Position numbers and translations under genes: made by a program
In this document: in pieces, positions 2,734 through 27,439 of the stretch
How the letters are laid out: the number at the start of each line of letters is the position of its first letter
How positions within the stretch are numbered: the first letter of the stretch is position 1
Source: an uncultured Candidatus Bathyarchaeia archaeon
GTDB lineage: Archaea; Thermoproteota; Bathyarchaeia; Hecatellales; Hecatellaceae
Direction: 5' to 3'
Assembly: GCA_964569845.1 (NCBI GenBank)
Contig: CAZMUQ010000001.1
Span: forward strand, 3,994-67,993
DNA length: 64,000 nucleotides
Notes under the pieces: generated by a model
What the model saw: the letters and a program-made list of their open reading frames with translations, nothing else
The model's database searches: none
What the model was told of the DNA's origin: nothing

Positions 2734-2782
2734 TAGAGGTCAAACCTAGTTTAAACTAAGTTGTAAACAAGTCAAAAATTAC

Positions 2783-5288: not shown

Positions 5289-5309
5289 AATTAGGTTAGG
5301 TTTAAATAA

Positions 5310-6344
5310 CTAAGAGTAATGTTTTTTCCTTCCATATCTAAATTGAATATTACATGACCCCTCAATAGAAACCATGCAAGGTCCAACAGGTTTTTCTGGG
5401 GTACAGACCCTGCCAAAAAGTGGGCAATCCTCAGGATCTATTATTCCCCGCAGGATTTCACCACATCTGCAACCTCTAGTTTCTTTAAATGTTTCTTCCT
5501 TCAATATATCTAACTCATCTTCAAACTTTTTTCTTGCATCATATTTTTCAAACTTTTTTCTTAAAATCATACCTGACCCTTTTATGATGGGAAACCCACG
5601 CCAAGCAATATCAAATGGCTTAAAAACTTCATCCATAACTTTTAAAGCTTTAGGGTTTCCTTCATACCTAACAGACCTTGTATATTCATTTTCAACTTTA
5701 GCTTCACCATTTTTAATTTGTTTTGCAAGCATATAGACCGCTAAAAGCATATCTAAGGGTTCAAAGCCCGCAATAACTTGGGGAAGATGGTAAACTTTTG
5801 AAATTTCTTCATAAGGTTTAACACCGATTATTGTACTTACATGCCCTGGCTCAATAAGACCGTCAATTTTGATTTCTCCCATGCTAAGTAAAGCATGAAG
5901 AGCAGGTGGAATGTATCTATGGCAACTTAAAATTGAGAAGTTTTCTGGTGGTTCTTTAAGTATTGTTGCTGCTGTTGATGGTGCTGTTGTTTCAAAACCA
6001 ACAGCCATAAAAACAACATCTTTTTCCTTATTTTCTAAAGCTATTTTAACAGCATCTTCAATACTGTAAACGACTCTAACATCACAACCTTCAGCACGTT
6101 GAGCTAGAAGTGAACCTTTTAATGTTGGAGCTTTTGCAACATCTCCAAATGTTGCAATAATTTTGCCAGATTTAGCTAATACTATAGCCTCAGTAAACTC
6201 TTTTTCTGTTGTAACACAAACAGGGCATCCAGGTCCTTGCCTAACTTCAACTCCACAATCTTTAAGGAGATTATCTAAGCCGTAACGGATAATGGTATCT
6301 TGATGGGTTCCGCATACATGCATTATTCTAATGTTAAGCTGCAT
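5310..6344 (-). CDS. hypD: [NiFe]-hydrogenase maturation factor HypD
   Basis: Conserved motifs present are MHVCGTHQ (CGxH), GPGCPVCV and C-terminal cysteine motifs (CRCGEILRG…CPLFG). Confidence 0.9.
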   Translation of the reverse strand: MQLNIRIMHVCGTHQDTIIRYGLDNLLKDCGVEVRQGPGCPVCVTTEKEFTEAIVLAKSGKIIATFGDVAKAPTLKGSLLAQRAEGCDVRVVYSIEDAVKIALENKEKDVVFMAVGFETTAPSTAATILKEPPENFSILSCHRYIPPALHALLSMGEIKIDGLIEPGHVSTIIGVKPYEEISKVYHLPQVIAGFEPLDMLLAVYMLAKQIKNGEAKVENEYTRSVRYEGNPKALKVMDEVFKPFDIAWRGFPIIKGSGMILRKKFEKYDARKKFEDELDILKEETFKETRGCRCGEILRGIIDPEDCPLFGRVCTPEKPVGPCMVSIEGSCNIQFRYGRKKHYS

Positions 6345-6408
6345 TTCTTTTAATTTCTTAATAATGCTTTTTGCAAATACTTTGCTCCTATACCCTGATA
6401 GGATTATT

Positions 6409-6780
6409 TTACACCACCACTTTCATACTTTTAATGTTGCACTCTCTACCCTTAACAATTTTTACCTCTTTACCACATCTTGGGCAACTAAGAACTGGTA
6501 GAAGAAAGTGGTAAAGGTCCATATTTTTATGTTTAATTTCACCTTTATACCCGCAATTTTCACATTCTACTTCTACTTCTTCCTCTTCAATATGGAGTCT
6601 TGAACCTTCCATGATTGTTCCTTCAGTAAGCATTTCATAGTAAAATTTGATTTGCTCAATTCCTAAGCATGCAAGTTTACCTATAACAAGATGAACCTCT
6701 GAAACTTTTCTTGCATTATGTTTTTTTGCTTCTTCAAGTAAAAAATCTACAATCTGCTTTGTAACGTAATATTCATGCAA
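6409..6780 (-). CDS. hypA: hydrogenase nickel-incorporation protein HypA
   Basis: The N-terminus is MHEY…, and the zinc site has two CxxC motifs (CENCG…CPRCG). The 123-aa length is typical. Confidence 0.85.
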   Translation of the reverse strand: MHEYYVTKQIVDFLLEEAKKHNARKVSEVHLVIGKLACLGIEQIKFYYEMLTEGTIMEGSRLHIEEEEVEVECENCGYKGEIKHKNMDLYHFLLPVLSCPRCGKEVKIVKGRECNIKSMKVVV

Positions 6781-6791
6781 TTTCTATCCCG

Positions 6792-7460
6792 TTAAAGCTC
6801 TAAACACTTGATAACTTCATCTATGCCTAAACCAGTTTTACAGCTTGTTTCCACAACTTTAACCTTAGGATTTATGGATTTTGCATCTTTAACAATTTTT
6901 TTAACATCTACACCCATAATTTCTGCTAGGTCAATTTTATTTACCACAATAATGTCAGCTTCAAGAAATGTTAATGGATGTTTAATAATGACATGCTCTC
7001 CTTCAGTTACACTTACAACTACAACTCTTTTTTCAACTCCAAGCTTAAAATCAGAAGGACAAATAAGGTTTCCAACATTCTCAATAAATAAAACATTAAC
7101 ATTTTTAAGATCTATTTTCTCTATAGCCTTTCTTACAATATTTGCATCTAGATGGCATTCTTTACCAGTATTTATCTGTATAACTTTAACTCCATATTTG
7201 CTAATTCTTTCAGCATCTATAGTTGTTGCTAAATCTCCATTAATAACTGCTATTGAATATTTTCCATTTAAAATCTTAACAATATTCTCTATGAGTGAGG
7301 TTTTGCCTGAACCAACTGAACCCATAATATCAAAAGCTCTAACACCATTCTCCAAAAAAATTCTTCTATTTTCCTCAGCAAGCTTATTATTTCTTCTTAT
7401 CAAGTCAAACTCAAAATCTACGGTTTTCTCCTCCTCAATTTTTAAAATATCCTTACTCAA
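6792..7460 (-). CDS. hypB: hydrogenase nickel-incorporation GTPase HypB
   Basis: It has a P-loop GSVGSGKTSL and other G3E-family GTPase motifs (ENVGNLICP, NKIDL). The 222-aa length fits. Confidence 0.9.
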   Translation of the reverse strand: MSKDILKIEEEKTVDFEFDLIRRNNKLAEENRRIFLENGVRAFDIMGSVGSGKTSLIENIVKILNGKYSIAVINGDLATTIDAERISKYGVKVIQINTGKECHLDANIVRKAIEKIDLKNVNVLFIENVGNLICPSDFKLGVEKRVVVVSVTEGEHVIIKHPLTFLEADIIVVNKIDLAEIMGVDVKKIVKDAKSINPKVKVVETSCKTGLGIDEVIKCLEL

Positions 7461-7479
7461 ACTCTCACCAACCTTAAGA

Positions 7480-8523
7480 TTAAAAATACTTTTTAAGTGC
7501 TTTTGCTAAATCCTCCGGTATAATACTTATAACTGGCTGTTTAACAAGGAAAGGTAGAAACCATGAATCATTTATATAAAAACTTTTTATTCCAGGTCTT
7601 GCTACAATACTTAAATTTACCCAGAAATATGGAGTTTCCCTATCAAGGGGCCCTGAATTTAACACAAACTGGAAGCTTGAGAAGTTTTTATCATTGTAAA
7701 ACCTTAAAATTTTGCATATTCCCTCAGCTATATCCCTAAAATCTTCCCTGTTAAGTTCAGTAAAACTTGATTTCTTCCTTATAATACCTAGAACCTCATA
7801 ATTTGAAATGGGAGTAAAGGGAGCTAACCATTCCACATTCCCAGTTTTACCAATGTATCTTTCCCCTTTTTCCTTTTCAGTAGCAATAATTGTCTCCCAG
7901 AAATTTGATGAGAACCTTTTATAGTATTCTTCGCTTGCATCTAAAATATCCTTTAAATTTCCAAGCGGAATTTCTGTTAACATAGCTTGCATGTGTGGAT
8001 GAACAATGCTTGAACCTGCTGAAGGTAGGTATTGTAATCCAGCGGTAATAAACCTTATAGATGATACACTTTTAACTTTTTCAGTAAACATTTTTATGGC
8101 TAGAAAGCCATCAACAAAAATATTCGGGGTAAATTCATCTAGATTTAAGTAATGTTTTTTTGTTAGGACAACCACAACACTAAACTCGCAGTAAGGAGCT
8201 ATATTTGGAAAAAGGTAGGCTTCTCCAACACTAATTCTTCCTTCAGGAAGAATATTCTCTAAAAATTTTGGTGTAAACTTTTCAACTTTACCAGGACAGA
8301 AAAAACATTTTTCTTCTGATTCTTTTGCAAGCTTTTCAAGAGAATCCTTATCTGCCATGTAAATCATTTTTTCTATTGGTCTTCCTGATTCTTTTAATAC
8401 GAGGCATCCTATTTTTCCAGTTAAAGGATTTATTCTATACTCTATAATTTTTGGTTCTACCTCAAAATTTTTTAGGGGGTTAAGTATTTTTGCCTCTTTT
8501 GTAAAACTTTCAAACCTTAACAT
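7480..8523 (-). CDS. galactose-1-phosphate uridylyltransferase-like (GalT branch of the HIT superfamily) nucleotidyltransferase
   Basis: The zinc motif CFFCPG and the active-site HPHMQ (HxHxQ) motif are both present. The 347-aa length fits GalT-family enzymes. The gene sits between hypB and hypC on the same strand. Confidence 0.7.
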   Translation of the reverse strand: MLRFESFTKEAKILNPLKNFEVEPKIIEYRINPLTGKIGCLVLKESGRPIEKMIYMADKDSLEKLAKESEEKCFFCPGKVEKFTPKFLENILPEGRISVGEAYLFPNIAPYCEFSVVVVLTKKHYLNLDEFTPNIFVDGFLAIKMFTEKVKSVSSIRFITAGLQYLPSAGSSIVHPHMQAMLTEIPLGNLKDILDASEEYYKRFSSNFWETIIATEKEKGERYIGKTGNVEWLAPFTPISNYEVLGIIRKKSSFTELNREDFRDIAEGICKILRFYNDKNFSSFQFVLNSGPLDRETPYFWVNLSIVARPGIKSFYINDSWFLPFLVKQPVISIIPEDLAKALKKYF

Positions 8524-8558
8524 TTAAACCACATGGTAGTAGAGGTTAAATTAAACTC

Positions 8559-8780
8559 TTATTCCTCAGCCTCTAATATCTCACTCCAAATCTTAAGAGT
8601 TTCTTTAGCAGTTTCCTCATCTAAAACTTGGATTGCAAATCCAGCATGAACAATTACATAATCACCTATTTTAGCATCAACAAGCGAAATATTAACCTCC
8701 CTAACTACACCTCCACCAAAATCAACTACTGCATGGTCTCCTTCAACTTTTAAAACCTTCGCAGGGATAGCTAAACACAA
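8559..8780 (-). CDS. hypC: hydrogenase assembly chaperone HypC
   Basis: The N-terminus reads MCLAIPAKV, with the essential Cys2. The 73-aa length is typical. Confidence 0.9.
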   Translation of the reverse strand: MCLAIPAKVLKVEGDHAVVDFGGGVVREVNISLVDAKIGDYVIVHAGFAIQVLDEETAKETLKIWSEILEAEE

Positions 8781-8851
8781 TCCACATCACAGGGGTAAAT
8801 ATCCTCTTAAAATGAAGAGGAATCTTAACCTTTAACTTTTTCTCCAAAAAT

Positions 8852-11119
8852 TTAACCTAAAAAGCTAGCTATAAAAGCTTGTCCTAATGAAATTCCCCCA
8901 TCTCCAGCTGGAACTTTACTGTTAACTACAAATTTAAACCCTCTTTTTTCAACAATCTTCTTAATTGTTAAAGTTATATGTTTATTGTATGCTACTCCAC
9001 CAGAGAAACCTATAATCCTAACTCCCAATTCTTCAGCTTTCTCAATTGCTGCTTGAGCTAAACTTTTACTAATGTATTCTTGAGCAGAGTAAGCAAGATC
9101 CTTAGCAGAATATTTTCCAAGGTTTTCAAAAATTTCTAAAACAATATTTTCTGTGTTAATAATGTTACCATCTATTTTAGGTTCAACTTTAAGTATATCC
9201 TTACCGTTTAAAGCGTAAGATTCAAGCTTTATTGCAGGTTCTCCTTCATAGGTTCGTTCATAACATACTCCAAGTAATGCTGCAATAGCATCTAAAACTC
9301 TACCGCAACTTGTGGTCCATGTAAATTTTCCAGTTTTAGCCTGCCTTATTATTATCTCTGCTTCTGCCTTTCCAAACGGCAAAAAACTTGATTTTGAGTA
9401 AATCCAATCCTCAATTTTTGAATGTTCTCTTAAAATTCCTACAACCATTCTTAATGGGTAAAGTGTTGCCTTATCCCCTCCAATCATTGGTTGTTCTTGA
9501 AGATGAGTTAAACGTTTAATTTCACCCTCAACCCAATAAAGAATTTCACCACCCCATGCTTTTCCATCTAAACCATAACCAAAACCATCGCAAACAATGC
9601 CAATAGCTTCATCTAAACCATACTCTGCTACAAGCGAACCTAGATGAGCATAATGATGTTGAATAGGAAAAACTTCGCATCCAAACTTTTCAGCAAGCTT
9701 ACTAGCTAAACTTGTTGTATTAAATTTTGGATGCAAATCACATGCAATATATTGAACTTTTACATTTGTTAAGTTTAGAAGATGAGTTACAGCATGCTCA
9801 AGGTAGCTTAAGGTTTCAACATTTTTAACATCACCAATATATTGAGTTAAGAAGGCTTTATCTTCATTTAATATGCATCCTGTAACATTTTCTTCAGCAC
9901 CTAAAGCTAAAACAGGTTTTTTAACCCTATTTTTTAAAAATATTGGAGCTGGAGCGTAACCCCTAGATCTACGAATTATTGTAGGAATTTTATCATGAAC
10001 CCTAACAACGGAGTCATCACATCTTTGAGCAATCCTTCTATTGTGAAGGAGAAAGTAGTCAACTGTTGAACCCAGTCTTCTATATGCTTCCTCATTATCT
10101 ACAACTATAGGTTCACTTGGAGGATTTGCGCTTGTCATGATAAATGCTGGTTCTTTAACATTATCAAAAAGCATATAATGAAGACCTGTATAGGGTAACA
10201 TAACACCAATATTATGGAGTTTTGGAGCAATTTCCTCAGAAAGGTAGTAATTATCGCTTTTTTCAAGTAAAACTATTGGTCTAATGTAGGATGTTAAAAG
10301 TTTTTCTTCCTCCTTGCTAACTTTAGCAAAAGTTTTCACAGCTTCAAGACTTTTAGCCATCACTGCAAACGGTTTTTGTGCTCGATGTTTAACTTTTCTA
10401 AGTCTAATTATAGGCTCAGATTTTAAGGTTGAAGTTGCAATATGAAAACCTCCATTACCTTTAATAGCAACAATAAATCCTTCTTCTACAAGCTTTCCAG
10501 CTTCCCTAATAGGATCTTTGCACTCAACATTTTCCTTATCTTTTGTTGTTAAATAAACTCTTGGTCCACATGCATGGCATGCTATTGTTTGAGCATGAAA
10601 GCGACGGTTTAAAGGGTTAACATACTCTTCTTTACATTTTTCACACATCGGAAAATCTACCATTGTAGTGTTTTCTCTATCGTAGGGTAATTTTTCAATC
10701 ACTGTATATCTGGGCCCGCAATCTGTACATGTGATAAAAAAATAATCATATCTCCTATTCTTTGAATCTTTTAATTCCTCTAAACATTTACTGCAGATCG
10801 ATATGTCTGGCGGGATAACCAATCCTGAGAATCTTTTTTCCTCTAAACTTCTATATATCCTGAACTCTTTAAACTCGCCTTTATCTCTAGAAAATTTTAC
10901 TTTTAACTTGTAAATTTGTGCTAATGGAGGTTTTTCGCTTCTTATTAATTTTATAAAATGCTTAATGTTTTTTTTATCACCTTCAACAATAATTTCAACA
11001 GTTGCATCTCCACAATTACGTACAAAACCCTTAAGATTCTCTTTTACAGCAGTTCTATAGATAAATGGTCTAAATCCAACACCTTGCACAATACCAGTAA
11101 CAGTTATTTCTGCACGCAA
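8852..11119 (-). CDS. hypF: carbamoyltransferase HypF
   Basis: 755 aa. It has an N-terminal acylphosphatase domain (VQGVGFRPFIYR), two zinc-finger CxxC…CxxC pairs, a YrdC-like domain and a C-terminal Kae1/carbamoyltransferase domain. Confidence 0.9.
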   Translation of the reverse strand: MRAEITVTGIVQGVGFRPFIYRTAVKENLKGFVRNCGDATVEIIVEGDKKNIKHFIKLIRSEKPPLAQIYKLKVKFSRDKGEFKEFRIYRSLEEKRFSGLVIPPDISICSKCLEELKDSKNRRYDYFFITCTDCGPRYTVIEKLPYDRENTTMVDFPMCEKCKEEYVNPLNRRFHAQTIACHACGPRVYLTTKDKENVECKDPIREAGKLVEEGFIVAIKGNGGFHIATSTLKSEPIIRLRKVKHRAQKPFAVMAKSLEAVKTFAKVSKEEEKLLTSYIRPIVLLEKSDNYYLSEEIAPKLHNIGVMLPYTGLHYMLFDNVKEPAFIMTSANPPSEPIVVDNEEAYRRLGSTVDYFLLHNRRIAQRCDDSVVRVHDKIPTIIRRSRGYAPAPIFLKNRVKKPVLALGAEENVTGCILNEDKAFLTQYIGDVKNVETLSYLEHAVTHLLNLTNVKVQYIACDLHPKFNTTSLASKLAEKFGCEVFPIQHHYAHLGSLVAEYGLDEAIGIVCDGFGYGLDGKAWGGEILYWVEGEIKRLTHLQEQPMIGGDKATLYPLRMVVGILREHSKIEDWIYSKSSFLPFGKAEAEIIIRQAKTGKFTWTTSCGRVLDAIAALLGVCYERTYEGEPAIKLESYALNGKDILKVEPKIDGNIINTENIVLEIFENLGKYSAKDLAYSAQEYISKSLAQAAIEKAEELGVRIIGFSGGVAYNKHITLTIKKIVEKRGFKFVVNSKVPAGDGGISLGQAFIASFLG

Positions 11120-17139: not shown

Positions 17140-18255
17140 ATGGTTAAAGGGTTCAAAATTCTCCTAACAGTTTTAATAGCTACCTTTATCCTAATTTCTA
17201 CTCCTATTCTGCATACTCTATCTCAAACTCAAAATATGTATGAACCTCAAAAATTAACTTTTGAGGTTTATCCTGATGGTTTTGTTTTTATTGATTATAC
17301 AGTAAAAGTGGACCCTACACTGTCAACTGTAAATGTTACATGTTTTGGGGTAAACTATGAAAACCTTATAGTTCTAGATGAAAATGAGACTCCATTAGAT
17401 TATGTTCAAGTGGACGGTAATATAACTGTATATAGTTTAGGTTCAAGTATAGTTCATATATTTTACCTTACAGGAGATTTAACAAAGAAATCTGGAAAGA
17501 TGTGGATTTTTAGTGTTGAATCACCAATTACTAACACAATCATTCTTCCAGCTGAAGCTGTAATAATAAGTTTGAATGATGTTCCGGTTGATATTAAAAC
17601 TCTGGATGATGGAAGAAAAATGCTTACGATGCCTAAAGGCCCCATTGAAATATCCTATATGATTGAAGTTACAGGAACAAAAGATTATGCATTACTTCGT
17701 ATTAAGGAGGCTGAATCAGCAGTAAAAAAAGCTGAGGACGAGGGAAGGGTAATAGGTTTAGATGAAGCAAAGCAACTTTTAGATGAAGCAAAAAACGAGT
17801 ATGAAAAAGGCAACTATCTTGAAGCTGGAAAGATAGCAGAAAAAGCTAAGGAAGCTGCAGATAAAGCAGCTGCACCAGTACAATTAGGAACAATACTAAC
17901 TTATTTTGCTACTTTTATCATACTTCTAATTTTAGCTGGAATCTTAGCCTACAAGTTTCTGCTTAAAAAAGGTGGATCTAAAAGTGGACATGTTAAGGAA
18001 GTTTTTGCTGTAAACTTAGATAAGATTTTTAGGCAAAATCCCCAGCTAAGATTAGAGGATAAGGAGGTTTTAGAATTTATAGCTAATAGTGGTGGAGAAG
18101 TTTTTGAAGCTGAAATCAGGGAGAAATTTAAACTTCCAAAAACAACAGTTTGGAGAATGATTCAAAGACTTAAAAAAGAAGGAATTATTGAAGTATTAAA
18201 AATCGGCGGCCAAAACCTTATACGTGTAAAGCAAAAATATCGATTACAAGGTTAA
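17140..18255 (+). CDS. two-transmembrane membrane protein with an N-terminal extracellular beta-rich domain and a C-terminal cytoplasmic winged-helix (MarR/TrmB-like) domain
   Basis: Residues 5-25 form a hydrophobic anchor. A roughly 220-aa domain carrying N-glycosylation-like sequons follows, then an Ala/Lys/Glu-rich coiled coil and a second transmembrane helix ([23 protein letters not shown]). The C-terminal segment [48 protein letters not shown] resembles a winged helix-turn-helix. Confidence 0.6.
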
Positions 18256-18668
18256 TTCTTTTCTTCTTTTTTTAAACTTAAAATTCTGTATGCAAGCCAA
18301 GCTGCATTTTCAGCATTATTTATACCTACACATGCAACAGGAACACCTCTAGGCATTTGGACTATGGAAAGTAGCGCGTCAAGCCCTCCAAGCTGAACAT
18401 TTAAAGGTACCCCTATAACAGGTTTATCTGTTCTTGATGCTATAAAACCAGGTAAATGTGCTGAAAGCCCTGCTATACCTATAAAAACATCAGCATTACA
18501 GCTTTCAATATATTCTTCAAGTTCTTTAGGATTTCTATGGGCAGATAAAACTTTAACTTCGTAGGTTATTCCAACTTTTTCTAGTACCTTTATAGCTTCC
18601 TCAGCCACACTTTTATCTCTTTCACTTCCAAGGATGATTGCAACTTTACCCTTCAATTTAACTTTCAC
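18252..18668 (-). CDS. purE: N5-carboxyaminoimidazole ribonucleotide mutase / AIR carboxylase catalytic subunit
   Basis: The 138-aa PurE fold is present, with [10 protein letters not shown] and the SAHR motif (KVLSAHRNP). Confidence 0.9.
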
Positions 18669-20147
18669 CTATGCCTCTAAAATAATTTTACCTCTTTTAG
18701 GTATCCACTCTATTGTTTTACCTATAAGCTTCTTTTTTAACCTATACTTGTATACCCCTCTTACAATGTTTGCTTGTTCTATCCTTTTCTCTAAGAGTTC
18801 TTTTGAACCTATATCACTCCTATGAAAAGTCCCCCAACCATCTTTAAGCCAAACATAAGGTATACATTTTTCAACAATATCTCCAGCCTCAATAATGCTT
18901 TCACCTTTACCAAAAATTTCAACAAGTCTAGAACCACCTGAAATCATTTCACCATTGCTTTTTAAGTCTATTGAGCCATAGTAAACTTTACATCCCTTCT
19001 TCTTTATAGCCTCCTCATCAATATATACAGGGTGACCCTTAGCTAACTCTCTTTCTTCAGGATAACCTTTTGGTGCTATACATTTTACAACTGTAGCTAC
19101 GTTTTCAAACTTAAGTTTAATTTTATTTAGCTTCTCATCGATTATAGCTTCACAAATTTCAACCATATCTGTTTCCATTATTGGAAGAACATTTACAGCT
19201 TCAGGATCACCAAATCTACTATAAAATTCTATTATTGTTGGACCCCAGCTGGCAGTACACATCATTTGCCCTGAAATAACACCCTTATACTTTTCACCCA
19301 CCTCTTTTTCCACGGCTTTAACGCAAGCTTCAACAATTTTAGTTGATGCTTCATATTCCTCCTTAGTAATAAATGGTAAAAGTTTACCCTTTCCTGCTAT
19401 AGAACCCATACCTCCAGTTTCAGGGCCAATATCCATTTCAAACGCATTTTTATTATCCTGAACAAGGGGTAGAGGCTTAATTGTTCTACCATCAGTAAAA
19501 GCTTGGAGAGTATATTCCGGACCTTCAACTCTCTCTTCAACTAAAATTCTATCCTCAATATCTGTAAAACCATGCATGTAAACTTCATCTATAGCCTTAA
19601 CATGTTTTTCCTTAACATGTGTTTTTTCAGACCTGAGATAAGCTTGAAGGTCAGCTATAACTTTAACTCCTTTACCTCCTGCCTGCCTAGCAGGTTTTAA
19701 AGCTACACTTTCAGCATACTCTTTAATATATGAGACAGCCTCATCAACACTTTTAAAAGCCTTAAATCTAAGCCTTCCTGGAACTTTATACTTCCACATA
19801 AGTCTTCTCATGAAAGCTTTGGACATCTCAATTTCAGCTGGCTTACGCTTAGCTCCAATACACGGTATTCCTACTTCTTCAAGCTTATCAGCAACCCCAT
19901 GAAATAAAGGTTCTTCAGGACCTACAAAAACAAAGTCAACCTTAAATTTCTTAGCTGCCTCAACAACAAATTCAGGGTTTTTCGAGTTTCCAAGTGAAAT
20001 ATCTCCACCTGTTTTTTTACAAAGATTATAGATACCTGGATTGTTTAAACTCATAGCTGCATAAAGTTTAGGTTCATATGAACTTCTGGATATAGCATCA
20101 GCTATCGCATGTTCTCGAGCACCTTCACCTACAAGTAAAATACGCAA
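18669..20147 (-). CDS. purD: phosphoribosylamine-glycine ligase (GAR synthetase)
   Basis: It has the ATP-grasp fold, the N-terminal MRILLVGEGAREHAIA segment and the GVISGQMMCT region. The 492-aa length matches the long archaeal form. Confidence 0.9.
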   Translation of the reverse strand: MRILLVGEGAREHAIADAISRSSYEPKLYAAMSLNNPGIYNLCKKTGGDISLGNSKNPEFVVEAAKKFKVDFVFVGPEEPLFHGVADKLEEVGIPCIGAKRKPAEIEMSKAFMRRLMWKYKVPGRLRFKAFKSVDEAVSYIKEYAESVALKPARQAGGKGVKVIADLQAYLRSEKTHVKEKHVKAIDEVYMHGFTDIEDRILVEERVEGPEYTLQAFTDGRTIKPLPLVQDNKNAFEMDIGPETGGMGSIAGKGKLLPFITKEEYEASTKIVEACVKAVEKEVGEKYKGVISGQMMCTASWGPTIIEFYSRFGDPEAVNVLPIMETDMVEICEAIIDEKLNKIKLKFENVATVVKCIAPKGYPEERELAKGHPVYIDEEAIKKKGCKVYYGSIDLKSNGEMISGGSRLVEIFGKGESIIEAGDIVEKCIPYVWLKDGWGTFHRSDIGSKELLEKRIEQANIVRGVYKYRLKKKLIGKTIEWIPKRGKIILEA

Positions 20148-20154
20148 ATATTTC

Positions 20155-20709
20155 TCACCTTTTTAATACTTTATCTTTTTCTAAGAGAAGTTCAAGGTAG
20201 GTTTTATCCTCCAATTTTTTATCATGCAAATTTAACTTTAAAAGCACCCTTTTTACATTTTCTACTACTTTTTTACGTTCATCTTCATCTTTAGCAAACC
20301 CCTCAATTTCAACAAAACTTCCAAGATTTTCAACATTATCTAAGTTAATTTTTAAATTCTCAAGCTTGAAACTTTTTCTTATCTTTTTAACTAAGTAAAC
20401 AGGTTTAAAATCAAGTTTTTCTAGGATAAGCCTGATTACATTGAAATCTTCAACCTTAACTTCTAATTCTTCCCTAGTTTTTGCTTGGCTATTTAATCTG
20501 CAACCCTTATAAGTTAAAAAACATTTACCATTTGACCTTCTAATTCTTAAGGCTTCATCTGTTGTTACAAAATTTTTATGTGGAGCATTAAAGTATAAAT
20601 CCTCTTGGACTCCATACTCTACTTCATCTGCTCCAAGTTTTTTAAGGTCTTCTTCAACTTTAGCTAAATTCTCAACTTTAATCTTAACCTCAACCTCAAA
20701 CTTAACCAA
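20155..20709 (-). CDS. CYTH-domain protein (triphosphate tunnel metalloenzyme; class IV adenylate cyclase/thiamine-triphosphatase-like)
   Basis: The N-terminal EVEVKIKV segment is the ExExK signature. The 184-aa length fits. It is embedded in the pur operon between purD and the purF paralog. Confidence 0.75.
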   Translation of the reverse strand: MVKFEVEVKIKVENLAKVEEDLKKLGADEVEYGVQEDLYFNAPHKNFVTTDEALRIRRSNGKCFLTYKGCRLNSQAKTREELEVKVEDFNVIRLILEKLDFKPVYLVKKIRKSFKLENLKINLDNVENLGSFVEIEGFAKDEDERKKVVENVKRVLLKLNLHDKKLEDKTYLELLLEKDKVLKR

Positions 20710-20728
20710 TAATTATGCACCATAAAGT

Positions 20729-22069
20729 CTAGCTTATGTTTAAATATTTTCCAGTAAAACATCCCAAACAAAGATTTTGTTTAGGTATTCCTATAGCTTT
20801 TATTAAACCTTTAAGACTTAACCAGTAAAACGTATCTGCACCAACAACCTTGCTGACTTCTTTAGCTGTTAAATTTGCAGCTATAAGTTCATCTTTTTCA
20901 GGTACATCAGTACCATAAGGACAGGAAGCTATAAGTCTTGGGCTTCCAATTCTTACATGAACTTCCTTAGCTCCAATACGGTTCCTCATTTGGTATACTG
21001 TATTTTTTGTTGTTGTCCCTCTAACGACACTATCATCTATAAGAATAACTCTTTTACCAGTAATTGCAGCTTTTATAGGGTTAAGCTTAAGCTGAACACC
21101 AACCATACGTTCAAATTCTGAAGGTTTTATTGCACTTCTAATTCTTCTACCTGTTTGAACAAAACCTAAACCTAGAGGTATTCTAGCCTTATTTGAATAT
21201 GCCATAGCAAAAGGTATTGCAGTTTCAGGAACACCTAAAACAATATCCATCTTAGTTGTAGAGTGTTCTTCTGCAAGTATTTCTCCTATTTTCATTCTAA
21301 CCTCATAAACACTTTTACCGTTTATTATGGAGTCAGGTCTAGCATAATAAACATATTCAAATGAGCAGTATTTAGGTTGAGGTTTAAAAACCTGTTTTCT
21401 TTCAATGCTGTAAGCATCAAAAAGATAAACTTCTCCAGGTTGAATGTCTCCTTTAAAATCTGCACCAATAACATCCATTACACAACTTTCTGATGCAATA
21501 ACCCCATAATCAAAACCAAAACTTCCAATTGTTAATGGTTTAACGCCAAACTTATCCCTAGCAACAACCATTTCACCTTTATTTGTTAATGCTATAATAC
21601 AGTATACACCTTTAACTTTATTCATAACATTAATCATAGCTTTTAAGGGGTCTTTAACCTCCATAAGCTTAATGGAGAAGAATTTAGCTAGAAATTCATC
21701 TTCATCTTCAGCGTTTAAACCCTCCTTAGTGGAAATTTCTTTCCAATTTAATATTCTCCCATCATAACATAAAGCAACATTCTCAGGCTCAGAAACAATT
21801 ATAGGTTGAACCTTTTCTACAGAATTCTTAGGAGTAGAAGAAACGCTTCCAATACTAACCCATCCATGAAGATTTTCAAAAATTTTTTCGTTTGAAAAAA
21901 CCTGGTCTACCATGCCAAAACCCTTATAAGATGATAAACCTTCCCCGTTGAAGGTTACTATTCCGCAATTTTCTTGACCTCTATGTTGAAGAGCTAATAA
22001 TGCATAATATGCAAACCTAGCCATTCGCCACTCTTTGCTAAATCCGTAAATTCCTACAATTCCACCCAA
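20729..22069 (-). CDS. amidophosphoribosyltransferase paralog lacking the N-terminal nucleophile cysteine (PurF-like)
   Basis: The N-terminus is (M)GGIVGIYG, where Gly replaces Cys1. The Ntn glutaminase-like domain, the PRTase motif VILIDDSVVRGTT and C-terminal Cys residues (CLGCFTGKY) are otherwise conserved. It begins at a TTG, 2 codons after the purF TGA stop and in the same frame. Confidence 0.8.
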   Translation of the reverse strand: MGGIVGIYGFSKEWRMARFAYYALLALQHRGQENCGIVTFNGEGLSSYKGFGMVDQVFSNEKIFENLHGWVSIGSVSSTPKNSVEKVQPIIVSEPENVALCYDGRILNWKEISTKEGLNAEDEDEFLAKFFSIKLMEVKDPLKAMINVMNKVKGVYCIIALTNKGEMVVARDKFGVKPLTIGSFGFDYGVIASESCVMDVIGADFKGDIQPGEVYLFDAYSIERKQVFKPQPKYCSFEYVYYARPDSIINGKSVYEVRMKIGEILAEEHSTTKMDIVLGVPETAIPFAMAYSNKARIPLGLGFVQTGRRIRSAIKPSEFERMVGVQLKLNPIKAAITGKRVILIDDSVVRGTTTKNTVYQMRNRIGAKEVHVRIGSPRLIASCPYGTDVPEKDELIAANLTAKEVSKVVGADTFYWLSLKGLIKAIGIPKQNLCLGCFTGKYLNIS

Positions 22070-22075
22070 AAATTC

Positions 22076-23506
22076 TCACCCGTTTTCAAATTCAATGTAT
22101 CTAGCCTTACTTGTTGGACATTTTTTCTTCATCCTATCTGCAATTTCCTGAGCTTTTGGTGTAGGGTATTCTCCTGTTAAGCATGCTAAACATAGCTTAT
22201 CTTTTCCCATACCTATAGCCTCTATAAGTCCATCTATTGTTTGATAACCCAAACTATCTGCTCCAATAATTTTGCATATTTCTTCAATTGAATGTCTAAA
22301 GGCTATAAGCTCTCCGTGAGTTGAAATATCTATACCATAAAAACATGGAGAAATTATTGGGGGGCAGGTAATTCTTACATGAACTTCCTTAGCTCCAGCC
22401 TTCTTAATCATGTGAACAATATTCCTTATTGTAGTCCCCCTAACAATACTATCATCAACTAATATAACTCGTTGACCTTTAAGAACAGATTTAAGGGGAT
22501 TAAGCTTAATTTTAACAGCATTTTCTCTGAGAGATTGTCTAGGCATAATAAAGGTTCTATGGATATACCTATTTTTTATTAAACCTTCAGCAACAGGAAG
22601 ACCACTATAGCGAGCTATTCCTTCAGCTGCAGGTCTTGAGGTATCTGGAACAGGAACAACAACATCAGCATCATTTTCATAAGTTTTTGCAAGATTTAAT
22701 CCAAGCTTAACTCTTACATCATAAACACTTATACCTTCAATTATAGAGTCAGGTCTGCTAAAATATACATATTCAAACATACAGTAAGCTTTTTCTTTAC
22801 GTTTAGCAAAACATTTTCTTTCAATTTTTCCATCTGAGATTAGTAAAGCTTCACCTGGTTGAACATCAGAAATCAAATTTCCGCCACACATATCTATTGC
22901 AACACTCTCAGAAGCCCCTACAAAACTTCCATCAATTTCTCCGTAACATAAAGGTTTAAAACCGTATGGATCTCTAAAAATAATGATTTCTCCTTTACCT
23001 GTTAAACATACAGCTGAGTATGCACCCTCAATAACTTTATCCATTTCTGAGAGTGCATCAAAGTAATCTTTTCTTTCCCTATATTCGCGTAATAAAACAT
23101 TTAATAGAACTTCTGCATCACATGTTGAGGTAAAGTATGCACCATTTTTCTTTAATTTTTCTCTAATCTCAACATAGTTAACTATTGTGCCATTATAAGA
23201 TAAAGCTACATTATCAAGATTAAATGGTTGAGCATCAGTTAAACTTGTACCTCCAGCAGTTGAATATCTTACATGTCCAATTCCAACTCTACCATTAAGC
23301 ATTGATATCTCAGTAAACGGTAAAGCTTCACTAACAAGTCCATAACCTTTTTTTAAAAATATTTTGTCGTCACCATTTGTAAGAGCAATACCTGCAGCTT
23401 CTTGACCTCTATGCTGTAAAGCCATAAGTCCATAGAATATTTTTGCAGCTACACTTTCTCCCGTTTTACCATATATTCCAATAACTCCGCATGATTCCCT
23501 GACCAA
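22076..23506 (-). CDS. purF: amidophosphoribosyltransferase (glutamine PRPP amidotransferase) with a short propeptide
   Basis: The N-terminus MVRESCGVIGIYG is a 5-aa propeptide before the catalytic Cys. It has the PRTase motif VILVDDSIVRGTT and the [4Fe-4S] Cys ligands (CLACLTGEYP). Confidence 0.9.
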   Translation of the reverse strand: MVRESCGVIGIYGKTGESVAAKIFYGLMALQHRGQEAAGIALTNGDDKIFLKKGYGLVSEALPFTEISMLNGRVGIGHVRYSTAGGTSLTDAQPFNLDNVALSYNGTIVNYVEIREKLKKNGAYFTSTCDAEVLLNVLLREYRERKDYFDALSEMDKVIEGAYSAVCLTGKGEIIIFRDPYGFKPLCYGEIDGSFVGASESVAIDMCGGNLISDVQPGEALLISDGKIERKCFAKRKEKAYCMFEYVYFSRPDSIIEGISVYDVRVKLGLNLAKTYENDADVVVPVPDTSRPAAEGIARYSGLPVAEGLIKNRYIHRTFIMPRQSLRENAVKIKLNPLKSVLKGQRVILVDDSIVRGTTIRNIVHMIKKAGAKEVHVRITCPPIISPCFYGIDISTHGELIAFRHSIEEICKIIGADSLGYQTIDGLIEAIGMGKDKLCLACLTGEYPTPKAQEIADRMKKKCPTSKARYIEFENG

Positions 23507-23508
23507 CC

Positions 23509-25671
23509 CTAGCTAACCTCCATAATTTTTGGTATTGATTCCTCCCAAATGCTTCTTAAAGCATTAACAGAACATTCCACTATTTTTTTATCAAGATTTT
23601 GTAGAATAAAATTGTCATTATCATAAACTTTACCTATAATAGCTGCGGATATTCCATTCTTGACAGCAAGATTGATAATTTCTTCAGCATTTTCAATTTT
23701 ATCTGTGGTTAAGATAACTCTTCCATATGATTCAGAAAAAATAAGTTCATCTAAACTTGAAATCTTTTTTGATGGAATTTTTTCAAGGTCTACCTTTACA
23801 CCTAAACCTCCATTTATGGCCATTAAGGCTAAAGCTATAGCTAAACCTCCTTTTGAGCAATCATGAGCAGCTGTGACAAGCCCCATTTTAATAGCATTTT
23901 TAACAACATTCAAAACTCCAGCCTCTTTTAATCCATCAGCTTTTGGAGGTTTACCCCCAGTTAACCCGTAAATCTCATGGTAGTATTCTGAGCCTCCAAG
24001 TTCAGGGTAAGTTTCACCCAAAATTAAAATAAAATCTCCATGATTTTTTAAGCCTATAGTGGTTATAGATTCAAGTTTTTCAATTAACCCAAGCATTACA
24101 ACAACAATTGAAGGTTTAACAGCAAATCCTGATTCCTCATCCTCATTATAAAAGCTAACATTACCTCCAACGCATGGAATATTAAGCATACGGCTCATAT
24201 AGGCTAAACCTTCAATTCCACGTTTAAATTGCCAAAAAATTTCAGGTTTCTCCGGGTTACCAAAATTACAACAATCAGTGTAGGCTAATGGTTCAGCTCC
24301 TACGCAAGCAACATTTCTCGCAGCTTCAGCAAGTGTACCTGCTGAACCATTAAATGGATCTAAATAACTGTGGCGGCTATTACAATCAGCTTTAACCGCT
24401 ATAGCTTTACCGGGAACTTCAGTAATCCTAATAACAGCAGCATCTGCTACACCAGGCTTAACTATAGTTCTTAATCCTACTTCATGGTCATATTGCTCAT
24501 AGATCCATCTTTTAGATGCTATGTTTGGTTTTGAGAGAAGTTTATAAACGATTTCTGAAAGGTTTTCTGGTGTTTTAGGTTTTTCGAAGTTTAAAACCTC
24601 TTTAGGGAAAAATTTTTGACTTTTTCTTCTACTTATTGGAGTTTCTGTTAAAAGTTTTGGAGGGATTTCTGCTACTACCTTGCCGTTAAACTTTACAATA
24701 AGTTTTTTATCTCCTATAACTTTCCCAATAATAGAGTATGGAATTTCATATTTCTTAAAAACTTCTAAAACGTTTTCCACTCCATTAGGGTCGACAGCGA
24801 GAATCATTCTTTCCTGTGACTCTGAAAGCATAAGTTCGTAAGCTGTCATACCTTCCTCTCTTACATGAACATTATCTAAGATTATTTCTGCACCTAAATC
24901 TCCCTTACTAGCCATTTCAGAAGTTGCGCAAGTTAACCCTCCTCCTCCAAGATCCTTCAAGCTATGCACATAACCTGTTTCTAAGGCTTCTAAAATAGCT
25001 TCAATAAGAAGTTTTTTTGTGAAAGGATCTCCGATTTGGACAGATGGTCTATCTTCTTCTGATTCTTCACCTATTGTTTTTGATGCAAATGTTACACCAT
25101 GAATTCCATCTCTGCCTGTTGCTCCTCCAACTAAGACTAAGATATCTCCTGGATTTGTAAATTTTGCAAGAATTATCTTATCTTTTTTTACAACACCGTA
25201 ACATGCAACATTAACAAGACAATTTGTTTTAAAGCTTTCATCAAATTCTACTTCTCCGCCTACTGTTGGAATACCTACACAATTTCCATAGTCACTTATA
25301 CCTTTAACCACGTACCTAAAAAGCCATTTAACATGCCCATTGTTCAGATTCCCAAATCTTAATGAATCTAGAAGTAAAATTGGACGCGCACCTGTTGCAA
25401 GTATATCTCTTATAATTCCTCCAATACCTGTTGCAGCACCATTGTATGGTTCTATAGCTGATGGATGATTATGGCTTTCAACTTTGAAGGCAATGGCATA
25501 ACCATCACCTATATCAACAATTCCTGAATCAAATCCTGGTCCCATAATAACTTTCGGAGATTTTGTTGGAAGTTTTTTAAGCACAGGTTTACTACTTTTA
25601 TATGAGCAGTGCTCAGACCACATTATATCAAACATTCCCCATTCAACATCAGTAGGTTCTCTACCAAGCAT
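23509..25671 (-). CDS. purL: phosphoribosylformylglycinamidine synthase II (FGAM synthase large subunit)
   Basis: 720 aa with duplicated PurM-like domains. The N-terminus reads EWGMFDIMWSEHCSYKSSK. Confidence 0.9.
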   Translation of the reverse strand: MLGREPTDVEWGMFDIMWSEHCSYKSSKPVLKKLPTKSPKVIMGPGFDSGIVDIGDGYAIAFKVESHNHPSAIEPYNGAATGIGGIIRDILATGARPILLLDSLRFGNLNNGHVKWLFRYVVKGISDYGNCVGIPTVGGEVEFDESFKTNCLVNVACYGVVKKDKIILAKFTNPGDILVLVGGATGRDGIHGVTFASKTIGEESEEDRPSVQIGDPFTKKLLIEAILEALETGYVHSLKDLGGGGLTCATSEMASKGDLGAEIILDNVHVREEGMTAYELMLSESQERMILAVDPNGVENVLEVFKKYEIPYSIIGKVIGDKKLIVKFNGKVVAEIPPKLLTETPISRRKSQKFFPKEVLNFEKPKTPENLSEIVYKLLSKPNIASKRWIYEQYDHEVGLRTIVKPGVADAAVIRITEVPGKAIAVKADCNSRHSYLDPFNGSAGTLAEAARNVACVGAEPLAYTDCCNFGNPEKPEIFWQFKRGIEGLAYMSRMLNIPCVGGNVSFYNEDEESGFAVKPSIVVVMLGLIEKLESITTIGLKNHGDFILILGETYPELGGSEYYHEIYGLTGGKPPKADGLKEAGVLNVVKNAIKMGLVTAAHDCSKGGLAIALALMAINGGLGVKVDLEKIPSKKISSLDELIFSESYGRVILTTDKIENAEEIINLAVKNGISAAIIGKVYDNDNFILQNLDKKIVECSVNALRSIWEESIPKIMEVS

Positions 25672-25737
25672 TTTTCTGATTATTTTAATTTCCCTTTTTG
25701 TTAAGTTTACTTTAACTGGTATTTTTCTTCCTATTTC

Positions 25738-26439
25738 TTAACACCTCAAAAAGTTAATCATAGATTTAAACATCAATAAACCATCTTCAGACATGTAAGG
25801 GCTAAGTATTCTTTCTGATGCTCTTTCAGGGTGAGGCATAAGTCCTACAACATTACCTTTCTCATTGCAAATTGATGCTATGTTATCTAGAGAACCATTA
25901 GGGTTTGCAGATAAGCTTGCTTTACCTTTCTCATCTACATACCTTAAAACAATTTGATTTTTTTCTTTCAGTTTTTTAAGGCCTGATTTACTGTTAAAGT
26001 ATCTTCCCTCCTTATGAGCTATAGGCATATGAAGAATTTTTCCTTCTGGTATAAGAGATGTAAATGCTGTATGGCTTCTTTCACATCTTAATGCAACCCA
26101 TTTACAAACAAATTTTAAATTGTTATTAATTAGAAGCGCACCAGGAAGCAGTTCTGCTTCAATAAGAATTTGAAAACCATTACAGATGCCAAGAATTGGT
26201 TTACCTTCCTCAGCCATTTTTTTAATTTCATCCATAGCTGGACTATGAGATGCGATAGCTCCAGCTCTTAAATAATCTCCATAAGAAAAACCACCTGGAA
26301 GGATAGCGGCATCATATCTACTATTCTTAAAAAATTTATGCCAAACAAGTTCTGCGGGTAAATCTAAAACATTCCTAAGTACATGGAAAACATCATAATC
26401 ACAATTTGACCCAGGAAACTGGATAACAGCTATTTTCAC
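25738..26439 (-). CDS. purQ: phosphoribosylformylglycinamidine synthase I (glutaminase subunit)
   Basis: It has a class I glutamine amidotransferase fold: MKIAVIQFPGSNCD, the catalytic Cys in GICNGFQ, and His/Glu in MPHPER. Confidence 0.9.
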   Translation of the reverse strand: MKIAVIQFPGSNCDYDVFHVLRNVLDLPAELVWHKFFKNSRYDAAILPGGFSYGDYLRAGAIASHSPAMDEIKKMAEEGKPILGICNGFQILIEAELLPGALLINNNLKFVCKWVALRCERSHTAFTSLIPEGKILHMPIAHKEGRYFNSKSGLKKLKEKNQIVLRYVDEKGKASLSANPNGSLDNIASICNEKGNVVGLMPHPERASERILSPYMSEDGLLMFKSMINFLRC

Positions 26440-26444
26440 TCTTT

Positions 26445-26708
26445 TTAATCACCTTTTTTAACATTAATTTTATAAGTGTGAACCACAGGATTGTATATCC
26501 TAAGCCTATTACACATATCAAAAACAGTTTTTTCAGCTTCTTTCCTATTTTTAGCTTCAATAAGAATCTTAAGATACTTCCCTGTTCTAACAGATTTGAT
26601 ATGCTCATACCCTCCCTTGATAATCAAATCCTTTTTTATTGTTTCTCCCTCTGGATCTCTTGCAGCAGGCTTATTTTCAATTATAACCTCTACAATAAAA
26701 TTTCTCAT
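26445..26708 (-). CDS. purS: FGAM synthase PurS subunit
   Basis: It is 87 aa and shows the PurS pattern (…VIIENKPAARDPEGETI…). It overlaps purC by 4 nt. Confidence 0.85.
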   Translation of the reverse strand: MRNFIVEVIIENKPAARDPEGETIKKDLIIKGGYEHIKSVRTGKYLKILIEAKNRKEAEKTVFDMCNRLRIYNPVVHTYKINVKKGD

Positions 26709-27439
26709 TTACATCTACCAACAATTAACTTGTAGCTTTCATCGTAAACTTTGCTAACTTTTTCAAGGCTTTCTCCACTTCTGTAAACATCTTTATCTAA
26801 GGATTCGCCAGTATCTTTTTTCCAAAGCCTCATACAATCAATATTTAATTCATCTCCGATTCTTAACCTTCCTCTACTATCCCTACCAAACTCAAGCTTA
26901 AAGTCAACAAGTTGTAAACCAAGCTTATTCATAAATTTACTCAAAATCCTGTTGGCTTTTCTTGTTATATTTTTAATTTTTTGCACCTCATTTTTGTTCA
27001 TCAAATTAAAGGCAATTAAATGTTCTTCGGATAAAAGTGGATCATGAAGTTTATCATCCTTAAGGTAAAATTCTATTAAAGGTTTTTTTAATTTTTCACC
27101 TTTAGTAAAAAATGGATAGTTTTTAACTAGATGTCCTGCAGCAATATTTCTACAAACAACTTCAACAGGAATCATTTTCAACTTTCTAACTTTCATTGTT
27201 GCTGGACCTATAAGGCTGATAAAATGTGTTGGTATCCTGTTTTTTTCTAGTAGATGAAAAAGTTTTGCTGAAACTTCAGCGTTGATTTTACCTTTCCCAT
27301 TAATTGTATCATGTTTTTTTCCATCTAATGCTGTAATGTCATCTTTAAATCTTAAGATAACTTTGTCATTTTCCCTTGTAGAATAGACAATCTTAGTTTT
27401 TCCTTCGGCTATTTTTTCCCCTAAAATATTTTCCTCCAT
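26705..27439 (-). CDS. purC: phosphoribosylaminoimidazole-succinocarboxamide synthase (SAICAR synthetase)
   Basis: 244 aa. It has GKTKIVY, IPVEVVCRNI and the LVDFKLEFG region. Confidence 0.9.
   Translation of the reverse strand: MEENILGEKIAEGKTKIVYSTRENDKVILRFKDDITALDGKKHDTINGKGKINAEVSAKLFHLLEKNRIPTHFISLIGPATMKVRKLKMIPVEVVCRNIAAGHLVKNYPFFTKGEKLKKPLIEFYLKDDKLHDPLLSEEHLIAFNLMNKNEVQKIKNITRKANRILSKFMNKLGLQLVDFKLEFGRDSRGRLRIGDELNIDCMRLWKKDTGESLDKDVYRSGESLEKVSKVYDESYKLIVGRCK

Follow-up and report, generated by a model that had tools for sequence, protein, structure and literature searches.

PurF′, a PurF paralog without the catalytic cysteine encoded directly after purF in an archaeal purine operon

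The purF-purF′ locus

The stretch analysed here, referred to as the window, comprises 64,000 nucleotides of contig CAZMUQ010000001.1 from an uncultured Candidatus Bathyarchaeia archaeon and carries a purine biosynthesis (pur) operon in which two purF-type open reading frames (ORFs) lie in tandem and in the same frame on the minus strand. PurF catalyzes the committed, feedback-regulated reaction in the de novo formation of purines. The upstream copy is a canonical purF, and the downstream copy encodes a paralog with glycine in place of the nucleophile Cys1. This paralog almost certainly belongs to the archaeal PurF′ family, which arose long ago by tandem duplication of the glutamine phosphoribosyl pyrophosphate (PRPP) amidotransferase of the Fe-S, propeptide type. 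The two genes, with the N-terminal nucleophile (Ntn)-type and phosphoribosyltransferase (PRTase) domains of the second, are arranged as follows.

22076..23506, minus strand: canonical purF, 476 amino acids; 5-residue propeptide (MVRES) before Cys6; all glutamine-site, PRPP-site and Fe-S residues present
22070..22081, minus strand: purF/purF′ junction; GGGTGA Shine-Dalgarno-like motif including the purF stop (22076-22078), then a GAATTT spacer; purF′ TTG at 22067-22069
20729..22069, minus strand: purF′, 446 amino acids plus stop; Cys-less PurF paralog with a TTG start
21374..22069, minus strand: purF′ N-terminal Ntn-type domain, residues 1-232; glutamine site predicted to be dead
20732..21373, minus strand: purF′ PRTase domain, residues 233-446
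21077..21166, minus strand: purF′ PRTase flexible loop, residues 302-331, GFVQTGRRIRSAIKPSEFERMVGVQLKLNP
21011..21037, minus strand: purF′ PRPP loop DDSVVRGTT, residues 345-353
20759..21367, minus strand: span of the purF′ [4Fe-4S] ligands, Cys235 (21365-21367), Cys383 (20921-20923), Cys434 (20768-20770) and Cys437 (20759-20761)

The purF ORF starts with TTG, (M)VRESCGVIGIYG, and its protein begins MVRESCGVIGIYG. The purF′ ORF also starts with TTG and begins (M)GGIVGIYG. The initial annotation had described this tandem, the short propeptide of the first copy and the Fe-S ligands of both, and each of these points holds, with the ligands at Cys242, Cys388, Cys439 and Cys442 in PurF and at the positions listed above in PurF′. 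Pairwise comparison of the two proteins gives 41% identity over 449 columns (E = 3e-103), and both carry GATase and Pribosyltran Pfam domains, the former being GATase_7 in PurF′. On the NCBIfam model TIGR01134 (purF, cutoff 350) PurF scores 482 bits, above the cutoff, whereas PurF′ scores 330.2 bits and falls under this equivalog cutoff; nine further Cys-less PurF′ proteins score 222-308 bits. A database protein on an ENA metagenome contig is 100% identical to the window PurF′, and the nearest named relatives belong to Bathyarchaeota/Hecatellales metagenome-assembled genomes (MAGs).

The family was described by Brown, Hoopes, White and Sarisky (2011, Biol Direct 6:63; PMC3261824), who found two PurF-like proteins, forming two phylogenetic clusters, in every purine-synthesising Crenarchaeon. 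One cluster bears the N-terminal Cys and the other, termed PurF′, is without it, "many with alanine or valine". Consecutive locus tags show the order purF-(purF′)-purD in the Sulfolobales (Saci_1611/1612/1613, SSO0632/0633/0635, Msed_1981/1982/1983 and ST1496/1497/1498), the two genes are dispersed in Ignicoccus, and PurF′ is missing from Nitrosopumilus and Cenarchaeum, which are ammonia-oxidising Thaumarchaeota (PMC3261824). An ammonia-dependent activity was proposed for PurF′ in that work as a hypothesis only. A search of the literature on Saci_1612, SSO0633, Msed_1982, ST1497 or an ammonia-dependent archaeal PurF returned no functional study after Brown et al.

The window protein shows the traits by which Brown et al. 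recognised PurF′, namely a cluster of its own, absence of the N-terminal Cys and a position next to purF among pur genes. The assignment rests on these traits together with its placement in a separate clade and a purF-purF′-purD order as in the Sulfolobales. Crenarchaeal PurF′ typically follows that order directly and has Ala, Val, Ser and similar residues at the Cys place. The window protein differs in having Gly at position 1, in the CYTH-domain gene that lies between purF′ and purD, and in its host, a low-GC (33.9% in the window) Bathyarchaeia/Hecatellales-like MAG from a group outside the 2011 coverage. The initial annotation had missed that the paralog was already described; its observation is a correct rediscovery of a known family and not a new kind of system. 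What is added here are new comparative hints, namely intermediate forms in Asgard archaea, the hyper-conservation of the PRTase half and cases in which purF has been lost naturally.

The junction reads AAC GGG TGA GAA TTT TTG GGT GGA, so that the TGA of purF is followed two codons on by the in-frame TTG opening the 446-residue paralog, as initially annotated. The further suggestion that the TGA is read through or recoded to give a PurF-PurF′ fusion of ~925 residues does not survive comparison with other loci and has almost no probability left. It draws on the shared frame, with only TGA GAA TTT between the ORFs, and on the scarcity of TGA, which closes 4 of 47 long ORFs and is the least used stop in the window. 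However, the frame relation varies over 51 distinct junctions (11, 15 and 25 in relation 0, 1 and 2, respectively), many of these junctions overlap (ATGA, -4 to -16 nt), and no fused ORF is found in ~100 loci or among the best 120 homologs, which are all 281-462 residues long. The in-frame TGA is thus coincidental, 11 of 51 being no more than chance. The stop also lies within the GGGTGA Shine-Dalgarno-like motif 6 nt before the purF′ TTG, the stop of the CYTH gene is likewise embedded (GGTGA, 7 nt before the purD TTG), and 53 of 57 junctions have a GGAG/GGTG-type motif of this kind in the 16 nt before the start. That the ribosome-binding site of the following gene overlaps it accounts for the unusual TGA and implies translational coupling. 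Recoding of TGA in the window organism was considered separately and rejected, as TGA ends other long ORFs and the pur genes contain no internal TGA. Within the operon TGA stops are found in purC, purF and the CYTH gene, each overlapping the start region of the next gene.

Equally remote is the explanation that the missing Cys is an artefact or a sign of decay, with a mis-called start hiding a Cys-bearing N terminus or the gene degenerating into a pseudogene. Three archaeal purF genes did regain their Cys once the start was moved earlier (PMC3261824), and the paralog is under the TIGR01134 cutoff. An upstream Cys-bearing start, which the initial annotation had named as grounds for refutation, was sought and none is present: the TGA stands two codons before the TTG with no Cys codon between, and >100 homologs start at the same place. 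The start lies exactly one codon before the Cys-equivalent in every distinct Cys-less junction; the Cys-retaining forms described below, with their propeptide of 5-6 residues, are the exception among the 57 distinct junctions. Ratios of nonsynonymous to synonymous divergence (Ka/Ks) of 0.05-0.18, 60 columns invariant across phyla and a confident structural model (predicted local distance difference test, pLDDT, of 90) further argue against decay. The upstream stop, conserved start, Ka/Ks and invariant motifs effectively refute a hidden Cys, a mis-called start and a pseudogene.

The glutamine and PRPP sites of PurF′

The alignment used to compare the active sites contains 213 sequences: 121 Cys-less PurF′ proteins, 11 proteins of that clade that do carry the Cys, 79 canonical PurFs (among them the partners of PurF′), and the Escherichia coli and Bacillus subtilis PurFs. 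The B. subtilis sequence was rebuilt from the Protein Data Bank (PDB) alignment and has its Fe-S cysteines at 236/382/437/440 as expected. Alignment with the E. coli and B. subtilis enzymes places Cys1 at Gly2 of the paralog, in agreement with the initial annotation. Cys1, Arg73, Tyr74, Asn101, Gly102 and Asp127 (E. coli numbering) are present in 100% of the 79 canonical PurFs, and Arg73, Tyr74, Thr76, Asn101, Gly102 and Asp127 are each at 97-100%. The corresponding positions in the Cys-less PurF′ proteins and in the window protein are as follows.

Cys1: Ala 41, Ser 34, Pro 24, Gly 9, Val 8 in Cys-less PurF′; Gly2 in the window
Arg73: Ser/Thr/Asp/Gly; Ser77 in the window
Tyr74: Pro/Ala/Ser/Thr; Ser78 in the window
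75-78: largely deleted; Thr79, Pro80, Lys81 in the window, shorter by one residue
Asn101: Asp 82, Ser 14, Asn 10; Asp103 in the window
Asp127: Glu/Asp/Ser/Ala; Glu123 in the window

With Pro80 in the place of Thr76 and Gly104 in that of Gly102, the glycine alone is kept in the window protein out of the six residues from Arg73 to Asp127, and the glutamine-site residues are missing in all 121 Cys-less members. Arg73 forms a salt bridge to the carboxylate of the substrate glutamine, and the 73-84 loop couples both active sites (PMC7953260). Replacement of Cys1 in E. coli PurF abolishes glutamine use and leaves NH3 use intact (Mei and Zalkin 1989, as cited in PMC3261824). Because the salt bridge and the coupling loop are lost and Cys1 replacement by itself abolishes glutamine use, glutaminase activity of PurF′ is predicted to be excluded on several independent counts. 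The initial annotation had arrived at the same prediction from the missing Cys1, overlooking the loss of Arg73, Tyr74, Asn101 and Asp127 and the shortened glutamine loop.

The PRTase half shows the opposite pattern, and the view that it is intact in the paralog is borne out by the PRPP loop DDSVVRGTT and the contacts of the flexible loop. Among the 121 Cys-less PurF′ proteins Asp345, Asp346, Ser347 and Thr353 of the PRPP loop are invariant, Arg350 is present in 120 and Gly351 in ~100%. The four Fe-S cysteines Cys235/Cys383/Cys434/Cys437 are invariant (121/121) and align with B. subtilis Cys236/Cys382/Cys437/Cys440. Taking the PRPP contacts of the E. coli enzyme from PMC7953260, the equivalents of the carbocyclic PRPP (cPRPP) contacts Tyr258, Arg332, Arg342, Lys349, Arg371 and Thr374 are invariant or nearly so, as are those of Ile335 and Pro337, and the Thr333 equivalent is Thr or Ser. 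The window protein has Tyr241, Arg311, Arg321, Lys328, Asp345, Asp346, Ser347, Arg350 and Thr353 in its PRPP site, and its flexible loop keeps the equivalents of Arg332, Ile335, Pro337, Arg342 and Lys349. In the Arabidopsis PurF, mutation of the DDS triad markedly lowers activity. Other invariant positions are specific to PurF′, among them Trp14, Pro384, the motifs GSFGFDYG, VPETAIPFA and TGR..R.AIKP, and, in the flexible loop, Thr306, Gly307, Ala313 and Gln326.

The two-domain architecture, an N-terminal Ntn class II amidotransferase domain followed by a type I PRTase domain, is confirmed by Pfam, by the model and by Foldseek. The AlphaFold2 model of PurF′ has a pLDDT of 90.2 and a predicted template modelling score (pTM) of 0.88, with the N-terminal domain at pLDDT >90 and the flexible loop alone uncertain; Foldseek superposes it onto B. 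subtilis PurF (PDB code 1ao0) with a template modelling (TM) score of 0.86 and 35% identity. Sequence comparison gives E-values of 7e-86 for 1ao0 and 4.5e-86 for Arabidopsis GPRAT2 (PDB code 6lbp). Canonical Fe-S PurFs (B. subtilis 1ao0/1gph and 6lbp) therefore share with PurF′ the fold, the four Fe-S cysteines, the PRPP loop and the Arg/Lys contacts of the flexible loop, whereas PurF′ lacks Cys1/Arg73/Tyr74/Asn101/Asp127 and the propeptide, has a shortened glutamine loop and is under the TIGR01134 cutoff. The E. coli Cys1 mutants, in which the nucleophile is gone and the PRTase half intact, provide a working model for PurF′. They are, however, laboratory point mutants in which the other glutamine-site residues and the channel coupling are intact, whereas PurF′ is a natural protein that has lost the glutamine loop too and has invariant motifs of its own.

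Distribution, ancestry and decay of the partner purF

The best 120 database homologs of the window PurF′ carry the names Bathyarchaeia, Hecatellales, Nezhaarchaeales, Thermoprotei, "Thaumarchaeota", Hadesarchaea and Freyarchaeota, and most of them open with M-[A/S/P/G/V/T]-G. A genome scan and exact-protein look-ups yielded 19 distinct loci, including Methanomethylicia, Conexivisphaera, a Sulfolobales MAG and Jordarchaeum, in all of which a same-strand Cys-bearing purF lies directly upstream. The genome scan with a full-length PurF′ alignment was dominated by canonical bacterial and euryarchaeal PurFs (17 PurF′ loci among 80 kept); a metagenome scan with a PurF′-specific segment of 59 residues as query gave 80 more loci. 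PurF′ is thus spread over the Thermoproteota, in Bathyarchaeia, Nezhaarchaeales, Methanomethylicia, non-ammonia-oxidising Nitrososphaeria and Sulfolobales.

Whether the paralog always follows purF had been raised initially. The adjacency stands, with purF at -16 to +32 nt from purF′ in 51 of 57 distinct junctions, but six exceptions show that it is not strict. purD follows purF′ in nearly all loci. The gap between the two genes is 640 nt at locus L136, and at locus L168 a cassette of ~7 kb (2997-9954) splits purF from purF′, showing that the two can be uncoupled. This glycosylation cassette contains two sugar epimerases, PMT_2 and GT2 glycosyltransferases, a radical-SAM gene and a Na/H exchanger.

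In a neighbour-joining tree (our own implementation, a crude distance tree without support values, from an alignment that leaves the named 2011 PurF′ proteins outside) the 132 PurF′-type sequences are monophyletic on a long stem of 0.27, with the partner PurFs from their genomes as sister group, and the Sulfolobales member L015 lies inside the PurF′ clade with the window protein. Cys-bearing forms are nested within the clade. These are the second copies of the Asgard archaea Freyarchaeota and Jordarchaeum (L004 and L009) and of some Bathyarchaeia (P0016, P0022 and P0046), which share with PurF′ the clade, the position after purF and the PRTase signature motifs. Unlike PurF′ they have a propeptide of 5-6 residues and keep Cys1, Asn101, Gly102 and Asp127; like PurF′ they have already lost Arg73/Tyr74. 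The Jordarchaeum second copy passes TIGR01134 with 371 bits. The simplest history on this crude tree would start from a tandem duplication predating the Thermoproteota/Asgard split. The glutamine loop would have been lost early and Cys1 later, several times independently, and the variety of replacement residues fits this course.

Second PurF-like genes with Ser for Cys1 also occur outside the family. In Methanocorpusculum labreanum Mlab_0150 represents a lineage-specific recent duplication by its description (PMC3261824). At locus L085 of an Omnitrophota MAG (JAQVOZ010000064.1, 5025-6446), outside the tree, a bacterial purF is followed after ~6 nt by a PurF-like ORF of 474 residues beginning MSGIFGT. 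Its protein gave a GATase_7 Pfam match only, with no PRTase Pfam domain detected, and may be an independent bacterial Cys-less paralog derived from PurF.

Both domains of PurF′ are under purifying selection. Over 136 genome pairs the PRTase domain of PurF′ shows 58.8% identity, compared with 48.6% in the partner PurF, and is the higher of the two in 90%; the N-terminal domains, dead in PurF′ and live in PurF, are at 39.6% and 38.4%, respectively. Mean distances over 39 further loci are 0.92 for PurF, 0.70 for PurF′ and 0.58 for PurD. The window purF′ has a Ka/Ks of 0.11-0.18 against its relatives, indistinguishable from that of purF, with 0.08-0.22 in the N-terminal and 0.035-0.13 in the PRTase domain. 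Sequence constraint of this kind indicates that purF′ encodes a working protein in which the N-terminal domain still has a role.

The partner purF is decaying in a Nezhaarchaeales-like hot-spring lineage. It carries R73L at two loci (L103 and L105) and internal deletions of 1.0-1.2 kb at three others from three samples (L097, L101 and L106, on contigs Ga0272445_1031619, Ga0326760_1005427 and Ga0080004_1064863, respectively), the left breakpoints being mapped in L101 and L106. The remnants lie at ~322-540 in L097, ~2240-2470 in L101 and ~2800-3185 in L106, compared with 1750-3179 for the gene in L103; what is left of it forms an in-frame mini-ORF in L106 and carries a frameshift in L101. Ka/Ks in this lineage is 0.15-0.38 for purF and 0.05 for purF′ at equal Ks, compared with 0.061 and 0.054 in a control pair. 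purC, purD, purT, purB and purF′ are intact at these loci, and if the genomes carry no other purF, PurF′ must supply phosphoribosylamine there. Some partner PurFs have an eroded PRPP site (K349W or a lost KLNP motif, R261H/N, D263S/A, T374S, DD to ED) next to an intact PurF′. That the erosion of partner PRPP sites and the decay of purF leave PurF′ intact points to the PRTase half as the seat of PurF′ function.

Three partner PurFs fall under the TIGR01134 cutoff, in uncultured Nitrososphaeria (L012, 4023-5534, 329 bits), Methanomethylicaceae (L014, 2399-3859, 309 bits) and Conexivisphaera (L053, 4574-6019, 332 bits). They have NHRGHE for QHRGQE and RGDT for RGTT, and L014 also has ED for DD; judged by sequence, neither copy in these genomes is a textbook PurF. 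L099 and L103, both from sample Ga0209493, have purF′ identical over 362 codons and purF genes that differ (Ka 0.062, Ks 0.165), suggesting that strains have recombined or form a mosaic where purF meets purF′, or that the assembly is chimeric.

The role of PurF′ and the surrounding operon

The initial annotation offered an ammonia-dependent phosphoribosylamine synthase and a partner in a PurF hetero-oligomer as options, and both are sensible. The reading preferred here, which we give an even chance of being right, is that PurF′ is a glutaminase-dead, PRPP-competent subunit making phosphoribosylamine from NH3. Its N-terminal domain would keep the Ntn fold and neither bind nor hydrolyse glutamine, and its C-terminal domain would present a complete PRPP site. 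The operon architecture suggests co-translation with PurF through the Shine-Dalgarno motif overlapping the purF stop. PurF′ would then run the second half-reaction (PRPP + NH3 to phosphoribosylamine + pyrophosphate) with NH3 that is either free or released by the partner PurF, and the phosphoribosylamine would be handed to PurD, encoded downstream. As characterised PurFs are homotetramers, PurF′ probably sits within a mixed PurF/PurF′ oligomer, although the lineage losing purF, the 7-kb split at L168 and the dispersed genes of Ignicoccus argue against an obligate complex. Ammonia oxidisers live at very low ammonia. Provided that this holds, the absence of PurF′ from them is a weak fit to an NH3-using enzyme.

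Several observations weigh against this proposal. In the flexible loop of PurF′ the equivalent of E. coli Lys326 is variable, Asn327/Arg328 are replaced by invariant Thr/Gly and Phe334 by invariant Ala, and these changes could disable or alter catalysis. One would expect a stand-alone ammonia isozyme to be regulated separately and not to be obligatorily co-translated with purF, and a regulatory subunit sensing nucleotides or PRPP would conserve the same PRPP-site residues. Mirror-tree distances give a partial r of 0.39 for PurF-PurF′ and 0.68 for PurF′-PurD, and so do not single out co-evolution of PurF and PurF′ beyond phylogeny. The contigs with a deleted purF span only 4-8 kb, and the genomes they come from may carry another purF. 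The literature gave no biochemical, genetic or proteomic support for any PurF′.

The main rival takes up the regulatory possibility, with PurF′ as a non-catalytic pseudo-enzyme in a PurF hetero-tetramer that tunes stability, nucleotide feedback inhibition or PRPP sensing. Adjacency and translational coupling are tight across phyla, the PRTase domain of the homotetrameric PurFs contains their A and C nucleotide sites, conservation of the dead N-terminal domain matches that of the PurF glutaminase domain, and flexible-loop positions have become invariant in a PurF′-specific way (Thr306, Gly307 and Ala313). A pseudo-enzyme does not readily explain, however, why the residues known to contact PRPP or to close over pyrophosphate are all kept at ~100%, why the PRTase domain is better conserved than in the enzyme supposedly regulated, or why purF′ is strongly constrained where purF decays or is deleted. 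The separation of the genes at L168 and in Ignicoccus counts against it as well, and we consider this rival unlikely.

The PRPP site could alternatively serve another task, using a nucleophile other than ammonia, or PurF′ could act as an adaptor passing unstable phosphoribosylamine from PurF to PurD. The position of purD after purF′ and the closer tracking of PurD distances by PurF′ than by PurF would suit an adaptor, but the correlation may merely reflect the noisier, faster-evolving PurF. The PurF′-specific motifs (Trp14, GSFGFDYG, VPETAIPFA and TGR..R.AIKP) would suit a new task, and in the Asgard copies, which have Cys1, Asn101 and Asp127 and no Arg73/Tyr74, an Ntn hydrolase of changed specificity is possible. 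Nevertheless, the gene is always in the pur operon with no genes of another pathway co-occurring, and the residue at position 1 (Ala/Ser/Pro/Gly/Val/Thr) is variable, unlike a new catalytic residue. A task of this sort is accordingly regarded as very unlikely.

An extension of the NH3-dependent reading, possible but on balance doubtful, is that in the Thermoproteota, and incipiently in the Asgard archaea, PurF′ and not the annotated PurF would be the principal catalyst forming phosphoribosylamine. PurF would act mainly as a glutaminase, with its PRPP site eroding in some lineages, and PurF′ as a PRPP/NH3 synthase that could sustain purine synthesis on ammonia alone. The latter capacity would explain why purF, but not purF′, can be dispensed with in natural populations. 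If this were true, a major archaeal radiation would rely on an uncharacterised, mis-annotated enzyme for the committed, feedback-controlled purine step, and an amidotransferase would, unusually, have been re-split into glutaminase and synthase subunits by duplication of a whole two-domain protein.

A strongly conserved second copy predicted to be unable to use glutamine is in any case found in Sulfolobales, Thermoproteales, Bathyarchaeia, Nezhaarchaeales, Methanomethylicia and thermophilic Nitrososphaeria, with a half-degenerated version in Asgard archaea. Because databases label PurF′ "amidophosphoribosyltransferase", metabolic reconstructions arrive at two PurFs when in fact a single PurF is accompanied by a protein of uncharacterised activity. 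The role of PurF′, a question posed in 2011, is directly testable in genetically tractable Sulfolobus, and the comparative patterns (active PRPP site, dead glutamine site and loss of purF with purF′ kept) say which answer to expect.

The genes around purF and purF′ form a tightly packed operon in the order purC-purS-purQ-purL-purF-purF′-CYTH-purD-purE, with the following coordinates.

18252..27439, minus strand: whole pur operon, intergenic gaps running from overlaps up to 66 nt
26705-27439, minus strand: purC
26445-26708, minus strand: purS
25738-26439, minus strand: purQ
23509-25671, minus strand: purL
20155-20709, minus strand: CYTH-domain gene between purF′ and purD
18669-20147, minus strand: purD
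18252-18668, minus strand: purE

A scan of the operon with bacterial promoter and terminator models, which are inapplicable to an archaeon, gave fewer matches than shuffled sequence. TTG starts are found in four consecutive genes, purF, purF′, CYTH and purD (18669-23506, minus strand). The CYTH ORF encodes 184 residues (Pfam PF01928, 97.6 bits), a triphosphate-tunnel enzyme inside a pur operon; the gene is shared with the closest relatives only (L001, L088 and L089), every other purF-purF′-purD locus lacking it.

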